From: Nautiliaceae bacterium
Lineage (GTDB): Bacteria > Campylobacterota > Campylobacteria > Campylobacterales > Nautiliaceae
Length of the DNA: 23,749 bases
Assembly: GCA_039831155.1 (NCBI GenBank)
Contig: JBDONT010000019.1
Coordinates: forward strand, 1 to 23,749
Reading direction: 5' to 3'
Shown here: one piece after another, positions 1-11,331 of the stretch
Layout of the letters: each line of letters begins with the position of its first letter
Position numbering within the stretch: the first letter of the stretch is position 1
Position numbers and translations under genes: made by a program
The notes under the pieces: generated by a model
Databases searched by the model: none
Told to the model about the DNA's origin: nothing
Seen by the model: only the letters and a program-made list of their open reading frames with translations

Positions 1-71
1 AGAGTGATATTTGCAATGAAAAACTTGACGAGTTAAAAGAGAAAATTACTCAGTTGGTGTTTTTAGAATAA
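1..71 (+). CDS. 3' end of an unidentified gene entering from the left (partial)
   Basis: The frame starting at nt 3 reads SDICNEKLDELKEKITQLVFLE* with TAA at 69-71. It has coding-like composition, but the family is not recognisable. Confidence 0.5.
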   Translation, partial: SDICNEKLDELKEKITQLVFLE

Positions 72-100
72 AAGTAGCAAGAAAAGAAGCTGCTATCTTT
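71..100. terminator. Possible weak hairpin between convergent genes
   Basis: aaag-tagca (71-79) pairs with tgcta-t-cttt (91-100) and overlaps the stop of the small minus-strand gene. Confidence 0.3.
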
Positions 101-233
101 TTGAAGAGTTTTTAGCAGCTGCTCTTTGAGCTCTTGTGGCAAAGCTTCCTTTTGGAACTCTTCCTCCGTTTGCTTTTGCTGTTGCACTTTGAATTCTTGA
201 AGCCGCTTTTGATGTCATAGGTATTTTTGCCAT
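93..233 (-). CDS. 46-aa basic, Ala-rich small protein with an SMP (seed maturation protein/LEA)-like motif; not in the ORF track
   Basis: Manual translation gives MAKIPMTSKAASRIQSATAKANGGRVPKGSFATRAQRAAAKNSSKR*. AGGAGG RBS (239-244) lies 5 nt before the ATG, and TATAAT lies at 265-270 on the minus strand. The pattern MT.xAASRIQSA...GG.V.KGS.A.RAQ.AA.KN resembles the SMP repeat (PF04927-like, recognised by eye). Confidence 0.88.
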   Translation of the reverse strand: MAKIPMTSKAASRIQSATAKANGGRVPKGSFATRAQRAAAKNSSKR

Positions 234-264
234 TTTTTCCTCCTTTTTGTTTTTTGGGCAAGAA

Positions 265-270
265 ATTATA
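265..270 (-). promoter_or_regulatory. -10 box (TATAAT) for the small SMP-like gene
   Basis: attata on + reads TATAAT on -, about 30 nt upstream of the ATG at 233. Confidence 0.55.
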
Positions 271-301
271 AGAGCTTTTTTAATTTTAATATAGGAATTT
301 T

Positions 302-348
302 AAAGGACAAGAAAGTTAAAAATAATTTTACTCGCTTTCTTGTCTTTT
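302..348. promoter_or_regulatory. Inverted repeat, operator-like, in the divergent intergenic region
   Basis: Perfect 10-bp arms GACAAGAAAG (306-315) and CTTTCTTGTC (335-344) with a 19-nt spacer. The stem extends outward (aaa/ttt) and has an inner taaaa/tttta stem. An extra CAAGAAA half-site lies at 259-265. Confidence 0.6.
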
Positions 349-406
349 TCTTTTCCTATTTATATTTTATGATAATGGTTAAAATTCCGATAAAAAAGGA
401 GTCAAA

Positions 407-2251
407 ATGAAATGTGCTAAATGGATAAGTAATGAAGAAATTTTAGGAATTGTAGTAAAAATTTTGGATATCGAACCAGATAATAAAAGAATAGTTAATA
501 AAGATTTAGAAAGGTTTTTTAAATTTGAAAATATTTCCATATCAAAATATAAAGAAATTGAAGAGTATTTATTAAAAGAGATTTCTTCAAAATTAAAAAT
601 AGGATATATTGATTTAATTCATCTTTTAAATGTTTTAAATCAGATAAAAATTCATAATCCAACTCTTAATGTATCAAGAAAACAACTTGATTTTATTTTG
701 CTTTTTGATGTGATTATTCCATTTTTTATTTCGAAGGCTGATTATAAATTTTTAGAGATTTTGAAAAAATATATTAATAGCAAATCGCCTTTTGAAAAAT
801 TTTTAGATGATTATTTAGAGCTAAAAAAGAAATTAATAGAAGAAAAAGGAATTGATACTACTTATAAAAATTTAAAAAATTGGATAAATGGAAAAAATAT
901 CTCAAAATCCTCAGTTAATGAGATTTTAGAGTTAATTGATGAAGATAAGAAAGAGGAGTTTTTAATATCTTTGTGGGTTATGAGAGTAATAAATAATTTA
1001 AGAAATTATTTTGGAGAAAAGATATCAAAATTCATATTTTCTCATATTAATCTGCTAATAGATTTTGATTTTGCTATGAAAGATGAGAGGGATGGTTATA
1101 AAGCTATTTTAGAAAAGCTTAATTTAAAAAATTCTTGGATGTTAAGAGAGTATTTTTATAGATATATTGAAAGAAATGATTATGTTTTTGTAGGGTTTGA
1201 TGACTCGCGTGTAGATGAATTTTATGTTAATGAAATATTGATAAGAATAAAAGAGCTTTATAATTACAAAAGTATGGTAATTTTAGATGAAAATCAGTTT
1301 TTTTCTTTGATAGATGATTTCTTTTTTGTTGATTATATTAGATTAAATTTGGAAAAGCCTTTTAGTGAAGTTGATAAAAAAATTAAAGAAGTTTCAAAGT
1401 ATACAAAAATAGATAACGATATGATAATTTTGGATGAAATTTCAAGGTTAGGTAAAGAGGAGTTTATAAGTGAATTTTCAAAATTATATGAAAGTTTAGA
1501 AGATAAAAGTTATCCTTTGGCTCAATTTTTTATGGGAATTTATCTTGTTAAAAGAGGAAAGTTAAAAGAGGCATTAGAAAAATTTAAATTGGCTTTAAAT
1601 GGAGTTAATTGTATAGGTAGTAATATTTTAAAAGTAATTGAATTTGGATTAATGGTAAGTGCAAAACTTAACAATAAAAAACTCACAATAAATTTTAAAA
1701 ATAATAAGTCTGATTTTATTAAATTTTATTTTGAAGGGTATAGGTTAGGTGTTTTGGTTTATCCAAAAGATTTTAAACCTATTTTAAATGATTATAAATT
1801 GGAGTTTGAAAGAAGATATGGAAAATTAAAAACTTTAAAAGCAGGAAATAAAAATGTTTATTTTGGTTTGGTAGATGAAATTCAAAAAATAAAGCCTGAT
1901 TTAAAAAAACCTAATAAAAAAATAAAATTGCCTTATAAAAATTATAAAATTCATCAGCTTTTGCATTTTGCGGGAGAAGGGAGTTTTGAAGATGTAAAAA
2001 GATTGGTTGAAGCTGGGGCTGATGTTAATTGTGCGGATGAAGTAAGTAATTATACGGCTTTAATTGCCGCTCTTGAAAATCCACTTGATGAAGAGAGAAG
2101 AAAAATAGCTTTTTATTTAATAGATAAAATGGATAAAGATATAATAAAAAAAGAGTTGATTAAGAAGAAAAAAAGTGCTTTGGATTATGCTAAGGAATGG
2201 GGAGAAAGTGAAATAGTGGAAAAAATAAAAGAAAGACTTTCTAAGATTTAA
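407..2251 (+). CDS. 614-aa protein with C-terminal ankyrin repeats, a TPR-like helix pair and a possible Xre-type HTH segment
   Basis: Ankyrin motifs are QLLHFAGEGSFEDVKRLVEAGADVN, YTALIAALEN and KSALDYAKEWGESEIVEKI. The TPR-like segment is PLAQFFMGIYLVKRGKLKEALEKFKLAL and the HTH-like segment is TTYKNLKNWINGKNISKSSVNEI. An aaggag RBS precedes the ATG. Confidence 0.8.
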   Translation: MKCAKWISNEEILGIVVKILDIEPDNKRIVNKDLERFFKFENISISKYKEIEEYLLKEISSKLKIGYIDLIHLLNVLNQIKIHNPTLNVSRKQLDFILLFDVIIPFFISKADYKFLEILKKYINSKSPFEKFLDDYLELKKKLIEEKGIDTTYKNLKNWINGKNISKSSVNEILELIDEDKKEEFLISLWVMRVINNLRNYFGEKISKFIFSHINLLIDFDFAMKDERDGYKAILEKLNLKNSWMLREYFYRYIERNDYVFVGFDDSRVDEFYVNEILIRIKELYNYKSMVILDENQFFSLIDDFFFVDYIRLNLEKPFSEVDKKIKEVSKYTKIDNDMIILDEISRLGKEEFISEFSKLYESLEDKSYPLAQFFMGIYLVKRGKLKEALEKFKLALNGVNCIGSNILKVIEFGLMVSAKLNNKKLTINFKNNKSDFIKFYFEGYRLGVLVYPKDFKPILNDYKLEFERRYGKLKTLKAGNKNVYFGLVDEIQKIKPDLKKPNKKIKLPYKNYKIHQLLHFAGEGSFEDVKRLVEAGADVNCADEVSNYTALIAALENPLDEERRKIAFYLIDKMDKDIIKKELIKKKKSALDYAKEWGESEIVEKIKERLSKI

Positions 2252-2253
2252 TT

Positions 2254-2487
2254 ATGAAACTTACTAACATTACCGGAAGAGAACTTATGAAGATTTTAAA
2301 AAAGCTTGGGTTTTATTTTGATAGGCAAAATAGAGGAAATCACAGGATTTTTAAAAACCCTAAAGGAGAAATTGTCGTTATTCCTGCTTATAAGAAAAAA
2401 ATATTAAAGCCCGGGCTTTTAAAGGGAATTTTAAATCAGTTAAATATCAATAAGGATGAGTTTATGAAACTTAGGGATATGGTATAA
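2254..2487 (+). CDS. hicA: HicA (YcfA)-family type II toxin / mRNA interferase, with no adjacent hicB
   Basis: RELMKILKKLGF..RQNRGNHRIFKNPKGEIVVIP...LKPGLLKGILNQ matches the HicA consensus, including the catalytic G-x-H His. 77 aa, basic. Confidence 0.85.
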   Translation: MKLTNITGRELMKILKKLGFYFDRQNRGNHRIFKNPKGEIVVIPAYKKKILKPGLLKGILNQLNINKDEFMKLRDMV

Positions 2488-2488
2488 T
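2480..2488 (+). promoter_or_regulatory. Extended -10 promoter (TGGTATAAT) for hypE, overlapping the hicA stop
   Basis: Exact TGnTATAAT about 30 nt upstream of the hypE ATG. Confidence 0.6.
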
Positions 2489-2519
2489 TAAATAAAAGTG
2501 TTTTAGATAAAGGAATAAA

Positions 2520-3497
2520 ATGAAAATAACTTTAGCGTATGGTGGTGGAGGAGAAGAGACAAACAAGTTAATAAACGATTTGTTTTATAAATATTTTAAT
2601 AATGATATTTTAGTAAGTGCGGAAGATGCTGCGGTTATCGGCACAGATGGAAAAATTGCTTTTACTACCGATAGTTTTACGGTAAGTCCTTTGTTTTTTA
2701 ACGGAGGGGATATTGGAAAGCTTAGTATTGCTGGGACTTGTAATGATATTGCTATGATGGGAGGTAAGCCTGAATATTTAACTTGTGGGTTTATGATAGA
2801 AGAGGGGCTTGAATTTAATGAGCTTGAAAGAATAGTAAAGTCAATGGCTGATGAGCTTAAAAAAGTCGGGGCAAAAATTGTTGCCGGAGATACGAAAGTA
2901 GTTCCGGCCGGAAGTGTAGATAAGATTTTTATAAATACTTCCGGAATTGGAAAAATTGTAAAAGAAGGAATTAGTGCCCATAATTTAAAACCTGGCGATA
3001 AGATAATAGTTAGTCGTGATATTGGAAGACACGGAACTGTTATAATGGCTCACAGATACGGGGTTGATACAGATTTAAAGAGTGACTGTAAAGTTTTATG
3101 GGATGAGGTAAAAGCCCTTATTGATACGGGAATTGATATAAAAGCTATGCGTGATGCGACAAGAGGAGGGGTTAGTGCCGTTTTGAATGAATGGAGTAAG
3201 GCCAGTGGAGTAGGAATTGAAATTGAAGAAGAAAAGCTTCCTATTAGTGATGAAGTTATAGGGCTTTGTGAGATATTCGGGTTTGAGCCTATGGATTTGG
3301 CAAATGAAGGTACGTTTGTAGTTGCAGTTGATGCACAAGATGCTAAAAAAGCAGAGCAGGTATTAAAACAGTTTAACGATAAAGCTTCAATTATCGGGGA
3401 AGTAGTGGAGGGAAATAAAGTTGTCTTAACGTCTCCTTGGGGTTCTAAAAGATATATTGAACTACCAAAAGGAGAATTGTTGCCTAGAATTTGTTAA
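2520..3497 (+). CDS. hypE: Hydrogenase maturation carbamoyl dehydratase HypE
   Basis: N-terminal ITLAYGGGG, FTTDSFTVSPLFFNGGDIGKL, GDTKVV, MRDATRGG, ANEG and the diagnostic C-terminal PRIC. Confidence 0.97.
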   Translation: MKITLAYGGGGEETNKLINDLFYKYFNNDILVSAEDAAVIGTDGKIAFTTDSFTVSPLFFNGGDIGKLSIAGTCNDIAMMGGKPEYLTCGFMIEEGLEFNELERIVKSMADELKKVGAKIVAGDTKVVPAGSVDKIFINTSGIGKIVKEGISAHNLKPGDKIIVSRDIGRHGTVIMAHRYGVDTDLKSDCKVLWDEVKALIDTGIDIKAMRDATRGGVSAVLNEWSKASGVGIEIEEEKLPISDEVIGLCEIFGFEPMDLANEGTFVVAVDAQDAKKAEQVLKQFNDKASIIGEVVEGNKVVLTSPWGSKRYIELPKGELLPRIC

Positions 3498-6488: not shown

Positions 6489-6839
6489 ATGATACTAAAA
6501 GAGATTTTAAAATCAGATGAAAACGATATAAATTTGGATTTTAACGATTTGGATTTGATATGTTCTCATTTAGGTTTTGCTTTTGTAAATAAAAAAAGAG
6601 GAAAACCGGATGATATATTAAAAACTCTTTTTCCTAAAAATATCTCTTCTTTTAAAGGGGCTTTGATTTATTTTAAAACCCACAGTGAGTTTCCGTTGCT
6701 GGAAATAGAACGTGTAGTTGGTAAGGTTTATGAACTGGGAAGTGAGGAGTCCGATATTATTTTTGGAAATTCAACGGACGATTCTTTAGACAAAGAAGAG
6801 ATGGAAGTTGTTTTAATTTTAAGTGGGATTGAGGGGTGA
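6489..6839 (+). CDS. Stand-alone FtsZ C-terminal (activation) domain-like protein
   Basis: ENDINLDFNDL resembles the FtsZ T7 loop (INxDFADV). It is followed by KGALIYF, FPLLEI and DIIFGNSTDDSL..EMEVVLILSGI, which resembles FtsZ NIIFG..D..L..EIRVTVIATG. There is no GGGTGTG N-domain. Confidence 0.75.
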   Translation: MILKEILKSDENDINLDFNDLDLICSHLGFAFVNKKRGKPDDILKTLFPKNISSFKGALIYFKTHSEFPLLEIERVVGKVYELGSEESDIIFGNSTDDSLDKEEMEVVLILSGIEG

Positions 6840-7679: not shown

Positions 7680-9329
7680 ATGGATTTTATGCCCGTAGGC
7701 GATATTATTAATGAAAAAATCTTTTTTTTTATTCCGTATTATCAAAGAGGATATAAATGGGAAGAACATCAGGTAAAGGCTATGCTTGATGATTTTTGGA
7801 ATTTTTGTGAAAAAGTGGAGTATGAAAAAGATGAAAATTATAAGTACTATTCGCTCCAGCCGTTAGTGGTTGTAAAAATGGATGAAAAACGTTACAAAGT
7901 AGTGGACGGTCAGCAGAGATTAACTACGATTTATATTATTTTAAAAGCTTTTCAAAACTATCTGGAAGAAGAAAAAGATAAATATACCTTTGAAATTGAT
8001 TATGAAAGAGGTTCAAAAGAGTTTCTTAAAAATATAGAAAAAGAGGCTGATGAATTTAACTTAGATTACTGTTATATGAAAAACGCATATAATACGGTTT
8101 TTGAATGGATAGAAGAAAAAGGGCTTCAAGAGCAAGATGTTTTGGATTTAAGAAACGTTATAGTAAGAAATTCAAGAAAAATAAACGGTGTAGATAGAAA
8201 AAACAATATCCGTTTTATCTGGTATGAAATAGACGAAAAGGATGAGTTTGACGTTTTTATAAGATTAAATATAGGTAGGATTCCTCTTACCAATACAGAG
8301 CTTATTAAATCTTTTCTGGTTCAAAAGGAGTCTTCTTTACAAAAAAGATTTGAGTTTTCAAAAGAGTGGGATGAGGTTGAATATACCCTTGAAAATGATG
8401 AGTTTTTCGGATTTTTATCTGCTAAGGATTTTTCTACCAGAATGGAGGTTGTTTTTCAGATTCTTTTAAATAAGACGGAATATAAAGAATATGAGCTTTA
8501 TGAGGCTTTTATTAAAAAATACAAAGATTTTTCTTTAGAAGAGATTTGGGATGAGGTAAGAAAGGTTTTTTATCTTTTGAAATTTTGGTATGAGGATAGG
8601 GAGTTTTATCATTTGATAGGATATTTAATCAGTGTGGGTGTAAATATTAACGAAATATTCGTTTTATATAGCGAAAGTGAAAATAAAAAAGATTTTAAAA
8701 ACAAACTTAAAGAGTTAATAAAAAGAAATTTAAATATTAAAGTGGAAGAGATTGAAACGCTTAGTTATTTAGAGAAGGAAAAAGTGCATAAAGTTTTGCT
8801 TTTATTTAATGTTTTGAGTCTTATTAATTCTACAAAAGATGTGTATGTGAAGTTTTCGTTTGATAAATTTAACCGTGAAAAATGGTCTATTGAACATATA
8901 ACGCCTCAAACCGATAAGATAAAAGAGCAGGATTTTAATAAAATAAAAGAAGAACTTAAAAAATTAAATTTGAATTTAAATTTTGATTTAGAGTTTGATG
9001 AGTTTAGGAAAAATATTGAAAAGGAATTTAGCGACTTTACAGATACCGAAGAAAAACATAATATTCAAAATTTAACTCTCTTGCCAAGAAGTCTTAATTC
9101 TTCTTTAAAAAACAACTTTTTTCCGGTAAAAAGAAACTATATAGTCCAAAAAGACAAAGACGGAGAGTTTGTGCCGATTGCTACTAAAAATCTATTTTTG
9201 AAATACTATAGTGACGCCGTAAAAAATGATAGTCTTTTAAAGTGGAGTAAAGATGACGGCAAAAGATATGTAGAGGCTATAAAAAATACGTTGGGAAAAT
9301 TTTTAGAAGGTGATGAGAATGGCAACTAA
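7680..9329 (+). CDS. GmrSD-family modification-dependent restriction endonuclease (DUF262 + DUF1524 HNH)
   Basis: DUF262 motifs IPYYQRGYKW, VVDGQQRLTT and FIRLNIGRIPLT. HNH motifs WSIEHITPQ and HNIQNLTLLPRSLNSSLKN. Confidence 0.9.
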   Translation: MDFMPVGDIINEKIFFFIPYYQRGYKWEEHQVKAMLDDFWNFCEKVEYEKDENYKYYSLQPLVVVKMDEKRYKVVDGQQRLTTIYIILKAFQNYLEEEKDKYTFEIDYERGSKEFLKNIEKEADEFNLDYCYMKNAYNTVFEWIEEKGLQEQDVLDLRNVIVRNSRKINGVDRKNNIRFIWYEIDEKDEFDVFIRLNIGRIPLTNTELIKSFLVQKESSLQKRFEFSKEWDEVEYTLENDEFFGFLSAKDFSTRMEVVFQILLNKTEYKEYELYEAFIKKYKDFSLEEIWDEVRKVFYLLKFWYEDREFYHLIGYLISVGVNINEIFVLYSESENKKDFKNKLKELIKRNLNIKVEEIETLSYLEKEKVHKVLLLFNVLSLINSTKDVYVKFSFDKFNREKWSIEHITPQTDKIKEQDFNKIKEELKKLNLNLNFDLEFDEFRKNIEKEFSDFTDTEEKHNIQNLTLLPRSLNSSLKNNFFPVKRNYIVQKDKDGEFVPIATKNLFLKYYSDAVKNDSLLKWSKDDGKRYVEAIKNTLGKFLEGDENGN

Positions 9330-11331
9330 TTTTTTAGATATCAGACACATAAAAATACCTATTGTTCAAAGGGACTACGCCCAGGGTAGAGACGATGAAA
9401 AGGCAAGGGAGGTTATAGAAAATTTTTTGGATGATATATTTTTTGCTTTAGAGAATAAAATAAATTTTCATTTGGATTTTGTGTATGGAAATTATGAAGA
9501 TGAATACTTTGTGCCTATTGACGGACAGCAGAGGCTTACGCTTTTGTATCTTTTGCACTGGTATTTCGCCAAAAAAGAGAATATCGATTTTAAAAACGGT
9601 TTAATTTATGAAACTAGGGTGTTAGCCAGAGAATTTACTAAAAAATTAAATTCTTTTGATATTGATTTAAATAAGGATGAGTTGTCTTTGCAAATAGAAA
9701 ATCACAAAGATTTTATACCTTATTGGAAAAACGACCCGAGTGTTAAGTCTATGTTAAAAGTTCTTGATTTGATTCATAAAAAAGCAAAGGATAAAAATAT
9801 AAGTTTTAAAGATTTAAGTTTACTTACGTTTGAGATTTTTGAATTAAGCGATTTTTCTCAAAAGCAGGCAGAAGAACTTTACAGTAAAATGAATTCAAGA
9901 GGAAAAGCTTTGAGTGAATTTGAAAATTTCAAAGCAAAAATAGAGCAGATTGTCCTTGAAAAAAGAGATGAAAATTTATACAAAACTATTGCTTCTAAAT
10001 TTGAAAAAGAGTGGATAAATGAGTTTTGGAGAGGCAGTTGTGAAGATGCTAAGAATGTTGATAAAAGGTTTATTAATTTTGTTTATTTTTTAACCGAAAT
10101 GAGATACTATGATATTAAGTGGGAAAAAGAGCTTAATATAAAAAGCTTTTCGTTTTTGAGAGAGTTTTATTCGAATGAAGATAATTTAAATTTTTTAATC
10201 TCTTCGTTGGATAAGTTAGAAGAGTTTAAAAGTTTTTCTAAGGAATTTGAAAGTTTTAAGCTTTTTGATAAAAAAGAACATATAAATTTTTTTGAGGAGA
10301 TAACGGAAAATTATTTTAAGATGAGTATTACAAATAAAGTTTTGGCTTATATGCTTTTAAAAACTTTAAATAAAGACAGTAAATACCTTTTAAGAGTTGT
10401 AAGGAACGATTTAAATAGAGGCAGAACATTAAAAACGGGTAGGATTGAATATAACTTAACAATAGAAAACAAAGATATCCCAAAATATTTAAGTGAATAT
10501 AATAAACTTTTAAACGATAATCCTTATAAAGCTTTGTTGGAAAATAGATTTTCAACAGAGAGTATGAAACAGGAACAGAAAAAGGCTGAATTTGTTTTAA
10601 AAGGTTTTGAAAAACAGATATTTGAGCTTGAAGATTTTGAATATTTAAAAGGAGATTTGGGGCTTATACTCTCTTCAATTAAGGATTTAGGCCAAATAAA
10701 ATTTATTCATACTCATTTTATTGATTTATTTAAAAAAGATGATAGTTTTATAGCAAGGGCATTTCTTAGTTTTGGGGATTACAGCTTGAAAATCGGCAGT
10801 ATTTTTAGAGGTAATAAATATTTTTTCGGACAAAAAGGAAACTGGGAGGTTATATTTACAACTAACACCCAGACAAAAGAGCATTTGGAAGTTTATAACA
10901 GATTTTTTGATTCTTTGGATAAATTGGATAGTAGCATTGAAAATAAACTAAAAGAGTATGACGGAAAAAATAAAGACTGGATTTATTATTTCTTAAAATA
11001 TCCTCTTATTCTTAGCAAATATAAAAATCTTAGCAACGTAATAGGATGGATAAGAGAGTGGGAGGGAGATATCTCATCTATTGAAAAGCTCCAAAAACAT
11101 ACCCAAATATCAAATCAGAGATTAAATGTATTTTTGCTGCCTATTGCAAAAACATTTGATGATGATTTATTAAAATACCAGGAAATAGATGAAAATAATC
11201 TTACATTTTTGGAGATAAACGATATGCAAATTTATGTGGAAGATTCTAAAATTTATGTGGATGAAGAGGCGTTTGAGCTTTTTGGTATTAAAGATGCAGT
11301 AAAAGAAGTGATTGAGTATTTAAAGAAGTAG
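9319..11331 (+). CDS. Second DUF262 (GmrS-like) protein with a long C-terminal region and no recognisable HNH motif
   Basis: IPIVQRDYAQG, IDGQQRLTLL, YSKMNSRGKAL. No EHIxP motif is visible. The likely start is ATG 9319 after aggtga, overlapping the upstream gene by 11 nt. Confidence 0.85.
   Translation: MATNFLDIRHIKIPIVQRDYAQGRDDEKAREVIENFLDDIFFALENKINFHLDFVYGNYEDEYFVPIDGQQRLTLLYLLHWYFAKKENIDFKNGLIYETRVLAREFTKKLNSFDIDLNKDELSLQIENHKDFIPYWKNDPSVKSMLKVLDLIHKKAKDKNISFKDLSLLTFEIFELSDFSQKQAEELYSKMNSRGKALSEFENFKAKIEQIVLEKRDENLYKTIASKFEKEWINEFWRGSCEDAKNVDKRFINFVYFLTEMRYYDIKWEKELNIKSFSFLREFYSNEDNLNFLISSLDKLEEFKSFSKEFESFKLFDKKEHINFFEEITENYFKMSITNKVLAYMLLKTLNKDSKYLLRVVRNDLNRGRTLKTGRIEYNLTIENKDIPKYLSEYNKLLNDNPYKALLENRFSTESMKQEQKKAEFVLKGFEKQIFELEDFEYLKGDLGLILSSIKDLGQIKFIHTHFIDLFKKDDSFIARAFLSFGDYSLKIGSIFRGNKYFFGQKGNWEVIFTTNTQTKEHLEVYNRFFDSLDKLDSSIENKLKEYDGKNKDWIYYFLKYPLILSKYKNLSNVIGWIREWEGDISSIEKLQKHTQISNQRLNVFLLPIAKTFDDDLLKYQEIDENNLTFLEINDMQIYVEDSKIYVDEEAFELFGIKDAVKEVIEYLKK

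Follow-up and report, generated by a model that had tools for sequence, protein, structure and literature searches.

The small gene and its surroundings

The window analysed here is the whole 23,749-nt stretch of contig JBDONT010000019.1 in the Nautiliaceae assembly GCA_039831155.1. Close to its left end lies an open reading frame on the minus strand (93..233) with an ATG start, 46 codons and a TAG stop. Its product, MAKIPMTSKAASRIQSATAKANGGRVPKGSFATRAQRAAAKNSSKR, is a single-repeat SMP-like protein of 46 aa, of which an exact copy is contained in a large protein collection. The protein has no aspartate or glutamate, 11 lysine or arginine and 11 alanine residues, and consists of two halves (AASRIQSATAK and FATRAQRAAAK) that are identical at 6 of 11 positions and are joined by the segment GGRVPKGS. 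This composition and the two related halves had been pointed out in a preliminary description made from the DNA letters alone, and both are confirmed. As read from its sequence, the protein is hydrophilic, with neither a hydrophobic N-terminal stretch or signal sequence nor a membrane-spanning stretch.

The expression signals proposed in the same description fared unevenly. A Shine-Dalgarno sequence, AGGAGG (244..239, minus strand), is situated 5 nt upstream of the ATG and, together with 68 short homologues (see below), bears out the claim of an ORF with a ribosome-binding site. The TATAAT hexamer is present as a candidate -10 box 31 nt upstream of the ATG (270..265, minus strand). The promoter scanner, however, preferred another minus-strand candidate (310..283) and reported two sites against 1.1 expected, so that a promoter for the small gene is only plausible. 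The downstream hairpin also exists (~101..70, minus strand), overlapping the TAG stop and followed by CUUUUAUU, and is a possible terminator; it is weak, at -7.2 kcal/mol (z = -0.56), and 53 of 200 shuffled sequences fold equally well. A terminator scan gave no site, and no Rfam family was matched in positions 1..2600 of the window. In a related genome, G005, the equivalent place is taken by a tighter hairpin, GCAGC/GCTGC.

Divergent from the small gene lies a plus-strand gene (407..2251) for a 614-aa all-alpha protein with C-terminal ankyrin repeats, followed 2 nt past its stop by a HicA-type toxin gene in the same inserted island (2254..2487, plus strand; Pfam HicA_toxin, 68.1 bits; PHROG 353, toxin). 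No HicB-like gene was found between HicA and hypE. On the other side, window positions 1..127, which include the final 35 nt of the small gene, overlap the 3' end of another contig of this assembly, C40 (L091 positions 2939-3065, identical to the window). This contig end brings in hypD and an MNT-type nucleotidyltransferase gene (PF18765 and PF01909, 39 bits each). Since the last 127 nt of C40 equal window 1..127, the order can be given as hypD, the MNT-type gene, a 25-codon remnant that overlaps the stop of the latter, the small gene (minus), the 614-aa gene (plus), HicA (plus) and hypE. In a complete genome of the same genus (G001), hypC, hypD and hypE are consecutive, with a 12-nt gap, and the insertion described here, in which the small gene is accompanied by genes of toxin-antitoxin type, comprises window 1..2519 together with the C40 end (L091 2649..3065).

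The small gene adjoins these hyp genes in two other genomes. In G005 the small gene and hypD are convergent, with roughly 40 nt between them; only 7 nt of contig remain upstream of the small gene's start, and hypE is cut at the start of another contig, so this genome is uninformative on the ankyrin partner. In G015, which is 99% complete, it occupies the same hypE-side spot beside unrelated genes of 257 and 315 aa. The ankyrin partner family was not found in this genome, and the 257-aa neighbour bears no likeness to it. The hypD/hypE junction thus looks like a variable hotspot with differing content in G005 and G015, and the differing neighbours here and in those two genomes make the small gene its constant element. 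Some 7 kb away in the window, two adjacent genes (7680..11331) carry GmrSD_N (DUF262) and are type IV restriction-like.

Conservation, selection and expression

A search of 5.8 billion proteins returned 75 candidates, of which 68, with lengths of 42-78 aa, are homologues at E ≤ 0.01. When 1.84 billion representatives were searched with a profile, 938 clusters were recovered at E ≤ 1e-3, with 206 at E ≤ 1e-10. The few homologues that bear any name are all called 'hypothetical protein'. Five residues (Q15, A19, G29, S30 and F31) are invariant in the 43 aligned family members, and members of the small family from different phyla share 65-90% protein identity. A codon comparison covering residues 6-41 at 83 loci gave a median pS of 0.80 against a pN of 0.26 over 3403 pairs, with a pooled omega of 0.31 over the 228 unsaturated pairs. 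The window gene itself, compared with its two nearest relatives, gave omega values of 0.17 (L005) and 0.24 (L003). A conserved protein with saturated synonymous sites indicates purifying selection at the protein level, and 93..233 (minus strand) is a genuine protein-coding gene under such selection. The preliminary description had proposed dN/dS among homologues as a check on its claim, and the selection it looked for is found.

In two metatranscriptome libraries, both from one sample of a single study, RNA contigs cover window positions 1..188 with no differences, at word depths of 42.5 and 15.4, and pieces on the ankyrin gene in the same runs have depths of 2-5; depths are per contig, and the contig with the small gene also spans upstream genes. 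Because such contigs are unstranded and may include DNA, this cover is only a weak hint of small-gene expression, and stretches of the window that lack it are uninformative. A vent-metagenome DNA run (X4) contains a variant of the small gene (window 87..255) with 10 differences over 121..255 and a flank of the G005 hypD type. Its word depth of about 249 is far above that of the neighbouring genes, which suggests multiple strains or copies whose neighbours differ.

The small gene is single-copy in its 1.53-Mb genome and present in four of 41 genomes of relatives. Across a sample of the phylum it was found in nine of 401 high-quality genomes, representing seven of 63 genera. A pattern scan using one genome per species confirmed 192 stretches, from which 80 loci were kept, and the nearest named relative is L005, an uncultured Nautiliales MAG, in agreement with the Campylobacterota assignment of the preliminary description. 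Hosts include Campylobacterota, Alpha-, Beta- and Gammaproteobacteria, Desulfobacterota, Bacteroidota, Dehalococcoidia, Izemoplasmatales, Acholeplasmataceae, Cloacimonadales, Halothermothrix and Hydrogenothermaceae, as well as a single Bathyarchaeota MAG. Phage records gave no match to the small gene, and plasmid records gave only two. Its rarity, its patchiness and a protein identity of 65-90% between phyla are signs of horizontal spread.

Relationship to SMP repeats

The Pfam SMP profile (PF04927) aligns residues 5-43 of the protein with profile positions 18-57 of 59 at 23.6 bits (E 6.8e-5), which passes the gathering score of 22 narrowly, by 1.6 bits; 28 of the 43 aligned family members match this profile at E ≤ 0.01. 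In the reverse direction, the bacterial profile (A1) retrieves accepted SMP members and longer proteins with 2-11 copies of the unit. Two multi-repeat proteins from metagenomes, P0069 and P0070, reach SMP scores of 147.8 and 108.8 bits. A search for longer forms gave 55 proteins, the named ones being from corals, a tardigrade, fungi and green algae, and three algal proteins among them carry SMP or seed-maturation names given by their sources ('SMP domain-containing protein' in Klebsormidium and Apatococcus, 'seed maturation family' in Micractinium). The likeness to a seed-maturation-protein repeat first suggested from the sequence is therefore upheld both by the score above threshold and by reciprocal profile retrieval.

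LEAPdb class 11 corresponds to PF04927, and its description (PMC3353982) gives the motifs T.GEAL[EH]A and PGGVA, several repeats in 159-278 aa, and the authors' view that the class is probably natively folded. Neither of the two motifs listed there occurs in the 46-aa sequence, which holds one repeat and falls well outside that size range. As the motifs are absent and the repeat is single rather than several, we read the protein, from sequence comparison, as a divergent, minimal SMP member. It shares with SMP, LEA D-34 and LEAPdb class 11 proteins an HMM match above threshold over most of the repeat, and a two-helix unit with a glycine-rich connector. It differs from them in having P-K-G-S-F-A at the equivalent spot and in being bacterial, strongly basic and from a family that is operon-linked to an ankyrin-family partner.

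Multi-repeat SMP-like proteins of non-plant eukaryotes, for example those of a tardigrade (P0071) and a coral (P0216) and the metagenomic P0069 and P0070, have repeats that are 50-72% identical to the window protein in the best local alignment, and share its core and loop motifs. The multi-repeat proteins differ in their 2-11 tandem copies, acidic residues and long linkers, and have no operon context. At two loci (L019 3884..4135 and L010 3819..4123) the unit is doubled, a Desulfobacterales locus having two SMP units fused in a single ORF and the other locus two adjacent diverged copies, and such double units look like intermediates toward multi-repeat forms. Two relatives, P0073 and the protein of L067, carry several acidic residues in the same core; the lack of acidic residues is thus not a family trait, which weakens the earlier suggestion of nucleic-acid binding through basic charge.

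The Ifi-6-16 HMM (PF06140) matches even more of the family at E ≤ 0.01 (37 of 43 members, against 28 for SMP), over a 30-residue stretch rich in Ala, Gly and Ser. The window protein scores 22 bits against this profile, below the gathering score of 29.1, and unlike Ifi-6-16/ISG12 proteins is hydrophilic and has no membrane-spanning stretch. Because it is sub-threshold and not hydrophobic, its likeness to them is most simply explained by a small-residue helix motif common to both; the overlap between the Ifi-6-16 and SMP matches may reflect that motif or a relationship of these Pfam families that has gone unrecognised. Some multi-repeat relatives exceed the Ifi-6-16 gathering score. No family in NCBIfam, PHROGs or PADLOC matched the small protein.

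A full-text literature search yielded no article dealing with single-repeat SMP proteins of bacteria or with SMP proteins encoded in defence islands, and the articles it matched to the name 'SMP domain-containing protein' mostly concern a lipid-transfer SMP domain that is unrelated. While the Pfam family itself is known, with some of its bacterial members named automatically, the search gave no published account of the one-repeat subfamily, the two gene cassettes described below or the linkage to the partner.

Predicted fold

AlphaFold2, run on the 43-sequence alignment, models the protein as a helix (residues 8-21), a loop (22-30) and a second helix (31-43), with a mean pLDDT of 85.7 and a pTM of 0.61, and the two related halves of the preliminary description are the two predicted helices. 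Small polar and alanine residues line both (RIQS in helix 1, RAQR in helix 2), and the conserved loop terminates in the invariant G-S-F. One SMP repeat is accordingly predicted to fold as a 40-residue helix-loop-helix hairpin, a model that gives no support to the disorder in the earlier proposal of a disordered protectant. Foldseek comparison of the hairpin with the PDB returned no match at E ≤ 1e-3, the rows being generic helical pieces, and searching PDB sequences with the family profile likewise yielded none at E ≤ 10.

An ankyrin-family partner

The 614-aa protein matches the corresponding partner at L019 by BLASTP over residues 113-614 (E 6e-15), as well as 14 other partners. Its own Ank_2 match, at 25.1 bits, is below the gathering threshold of 27.3, and its relatives match Ank strongly. 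The AlphaFold2 model is all-alpha; Foldseek returned for it ankyrin-repeat rows only (E 0.013-0.09, none at E ≤ 1e-3) and nothing for the N-terminal two thirds. The partner matches PADLOC solely via its ankyrin repeats.

Neighbouring ORFs were clustered for 83 loci of the small gene, L002 being left out as a duplicate of L005. At 22 of these (context A), an ankyrin-family protein of 730-1086 aa with its ankyrin repeats at the C-terminus is encoded directly downstream on the same strand (non-pathogenic culturable hosts of the pair include Paraburkholderia oxyphila NBRC 105797, L007, and Photobacterium iliopiscarium ATCC 51760, L045), so that with the 614-aa neighbour in the window the partner stands beside the small gene at 23 of 83 loci; an ankyrin-family neighbour is absent at the remaining 60. 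A reverse search against metagenome contigs, using the partner's non-ankyrin middle domain alone (A7, a 6-sequence alignment), gave 30 loci. At 27 of them the small gene precedes the match by about 1.1-1.3 kb in the same orientation. Another two, with only about 850 nt of upstream sequence, were not judged, and one (L109), where there is enough DNA, is truly without the small gene. Seen from the partner, the small gene is thus present at 27 of 28 evaluable loci, many of which are close kin; with near-duplicates taken into account, the 30 loci amount to about 8-10 lineages by our reading of identities. At about a quarter of its loci, then, the small gene forms a fixed two-gene module with an all-alpha/ankyrin protein of 600-1100 aa.

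No third gene is constant across the 50 partner loci, an upstream AAA ATPase being present in only eight. HicA downstream of the partner is absent from the other 49, and a term search of a paper on HicA contexts (PMC10865869) gave no mention of ankyrin. In the window the small gene adjoins a member of the ankyrin family (A4), as in the module, but it is not upstream and co-directional; this is the only divergent pair among the 50, the other 49 being co-directional, and for that reason the window pair may be rearranged or no longer co-regulated. The suggestion that the adjacent repeat protein has the small protein as its ligand is strongly backed at the genomic level by the counts in both directions (23 of 83 and 27 of 28 loci), and the hairpin may be regarded as a putative ligand. 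A complex prediction for the hairpin and the 614-aa neighbour, run without controls, scored 0.00 and speaks neither for binding nor against it.

Other genomic contexts

A second cassette (context B) was found at 22 loci (L004, L009, L015, L017, L018, L020, L022, L029, L032, L037, L038, L040, L051, L053, L056, L059-L061, L063, L078, L080 and L082). Here the small gene lies between two opposite-strand genes, one for a 115-aa helical protein (A2) and one for a zinc-ribbon, one-transmembrane, cysteine-rich protein (A3), neither of which matches a Pfam family. Marinobacter profundi (L009) and Rheinheimera pacifica (L038) are among the hosts of this cassette. A Pro/Gly-rich C-terminal tail with the motif PPNGPS is present in 10 of the 22 small proteins of this context and in none of the 61 others.

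The remaining 38 of 83 loci show neither cassette and have heterogeneous neighbours. In three Dehalococcoidia loci a protein combining HTH_31 and TPR is encoded directly downstream of the small gene. This arrangement, and more generally a tiny gene adjoining a large helical-repeat protein, recalls RRNPP-type peptide/receptor pairs. The 46-aa protein nevertheless does not qualify as such a peptide: it has no signal sequence and is highly conserved rather than fast-evolving, hosts of the small family are mostly Gram-negative, and an HTH in the ankyrin-family partner is unsupported by Pfam. A common Xre-type HTH among the partners was considered and dropped except as a lead, there being no Pfam HTH and only weak hhalign likeness. 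By hhalign, A2 and A3 had no match to the ankyrin family A4, the alignment of the Dehalococcoidia HTH-TPR protein with A4 was confined to 28 columns, located at the recognition segment of the HTH (E 0.0014, probability 18%), and A2 aligned with the HTH-TPR protein at E 0.06. Pfam gave no HTH in 16 A4 segments and one stray HTH_33 row (E 0.15) for nine A2 proteins.

In two Flavobacteriaceae (L057 2001..6883 and L066 2954..6878), the small gene is divergent from a gene for an RtcR-like CARF/sigma-54 activator and is followed by one for a glycosyltransferase/radical-SAM/SPASM fusion protein that matches pVip weakly. A PADLOC scan covered 148 of the 155 neighbour ORFs selected from the 38 cassette-less loci. 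Left out were HypD, UvrB, ShlB and RecA (L084:981-2027), which are annotated otherwise, together with a hypE fragment identified by translation only (L003:3-449), L084:2160-3428 and the 1075-aa L027:2-3229. Matches at E ≤ 1e-5 occurred at 20 of the 38 loci, with a specific defence-type match at 13 of those by our own sorting, both being raw counts. The types at the 13 loci were PbeA, type I/II restriction-modification, HKD+Snf2, Shedu-like, LmuA-like, Cas1, GajB-like, PDC-S03 and RtcR-CARF.

Possible roles of the hairpin

Ankyrin and TPR arrays are protein-binding scaffolds, and this, with the near-obligate linkage seen from the partner side, leads us to infer that the hairpin is bound by or works with its solenoid partner. 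Our leading reading of the genomic context, a tentative one to which we give a little less than an even chance, is that the two act together as an accessory stress- or conflict-related module, in which the hairpin would be a small protein-binding unit docked on, or handed over by, the partner. Because it often occurs without the partner, the hairpin would also have to act alone, most simply on a common target; where the partner is missing, it would thus engage the same, probably universal, cellular target. Several observations weigh against this module. An ankyrin-family neighbour is absent at 60 of 83 loci and, in G015, the partner family is absent from a genome that has the small gene; the window pair is divergent, unlike those at the other 49 of 50 partner loci; and the loci of the reverse search shrink to some 8-10 lineages when near-duplicates are considered. 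The SMP score, too, is only 1.6 bits over threshold, and the class-11 motifs are absent.

Plant SMP/D-34 proteins are regarded as protectants that shield or re-dissolve aggregates. The hairpin could correspondingly be a stand-alone protectant of LEA type, made under stress to shield or re-dissolve aggregating proteins or RNA, with its neighbours incidental or acting only as regulators of its gene. The homology to SMP repeats favours such a role, which we nevertheless regard as rather unlikely, and the 2-11 tandem repeats of eukaryotic relatives (tardigrade, corals, terrestrial green algae) fit a bead-like unit. Independence from any one partner would likewise agree with the 38 of 83 loci that show neither conserved cassette and with G015, and the rating of class 11 as probably natively folded (PMC3353982) fits the confident predicted fold. 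Retention of the small gene at 27 of 28 evaluable partner loci is, however, far tighter than would be expected of an incidental neighbour, and no osmotic or desiccation genes are recurrent beside it.

A role for the hairpin as an effector or signal of conflict islands, deployed or sensed by varied sensor or regulator proteins among anti-phage and mobile-element genes, appears unlikely. Its sensors would include the ankyrin protein, the HTH-TPR protein and the RtcR-like CARF activators, and in keeping with this the HTH_31+TPR gene follows the small gene in the three Dehalococcoidia loci and the activator is divergent from it in L057 and L066. The island in the window, moreover, contains the MNT-type and HicA genes, with the two GmrSD-type genes 7 kb away, and PADLOC matches were obtained at 20 of the 38 cassette-less loci, 13 of them defence-specific. 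As raw counts, these do not establish enrichment. No PADLOC model matches the hairpin itself, phage records are without it and plasmid records number only two, and many neighbours (RecA, UvrB and HypD, for example) are housekeeping genes.

That the ORF is not functional at all, being either an open frame that arose by chance in A+T-rich intergenic DNA or a remnant decaying there, would suit its shortness, the weak terminator, the unproven promoter and the assembly break that falls inside it, but is extremely improbable in view of the 65-90% cross-phylum identity despite saturated synonymous sites, the intact Shine-Dalgarno sequence and the confident predicted fold.

Returning to the partnered hairpin, a broader proposal, and a decidedly speculative one with a slim chance of being correct, is that it is a horizontally traded mini-effector or ligand used to report or counter cellular damage or infection by unrelated sensors and scaffolds, namely the ankyrin-family partner, the HTH-TPR protein, the RtcR-like CARF activator and the zinc-ribbon membrane cassette, with the multi-repeat LEA/SMP proteins of plants, algae, corals and tardigrades as its concatenated descendants. 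If this were true, the two-gene module would be the first tractable genetic system for SMP-repeat binding. We know of no established molecular mechanism for SMP/LEA D-34 proteins, and a one-repeat bacterial form with a fixed partner in culturable hosts would open that mechanism to genetics and biochemistry. For annotation, the family adds a widespread and mostly unnamed group of mini-proteins, comprising about 940 clusters at 50% identity, and it marks variable hotspots rich in conflict genes, such as the hypD/hypE junction. Elsewhere in the window, positions 6489..6839 hold a 116-aa ORF that matches the FtsZ C-terminal domain only (PF12327, 30.5 bits), without the FtsZ GTPase part.
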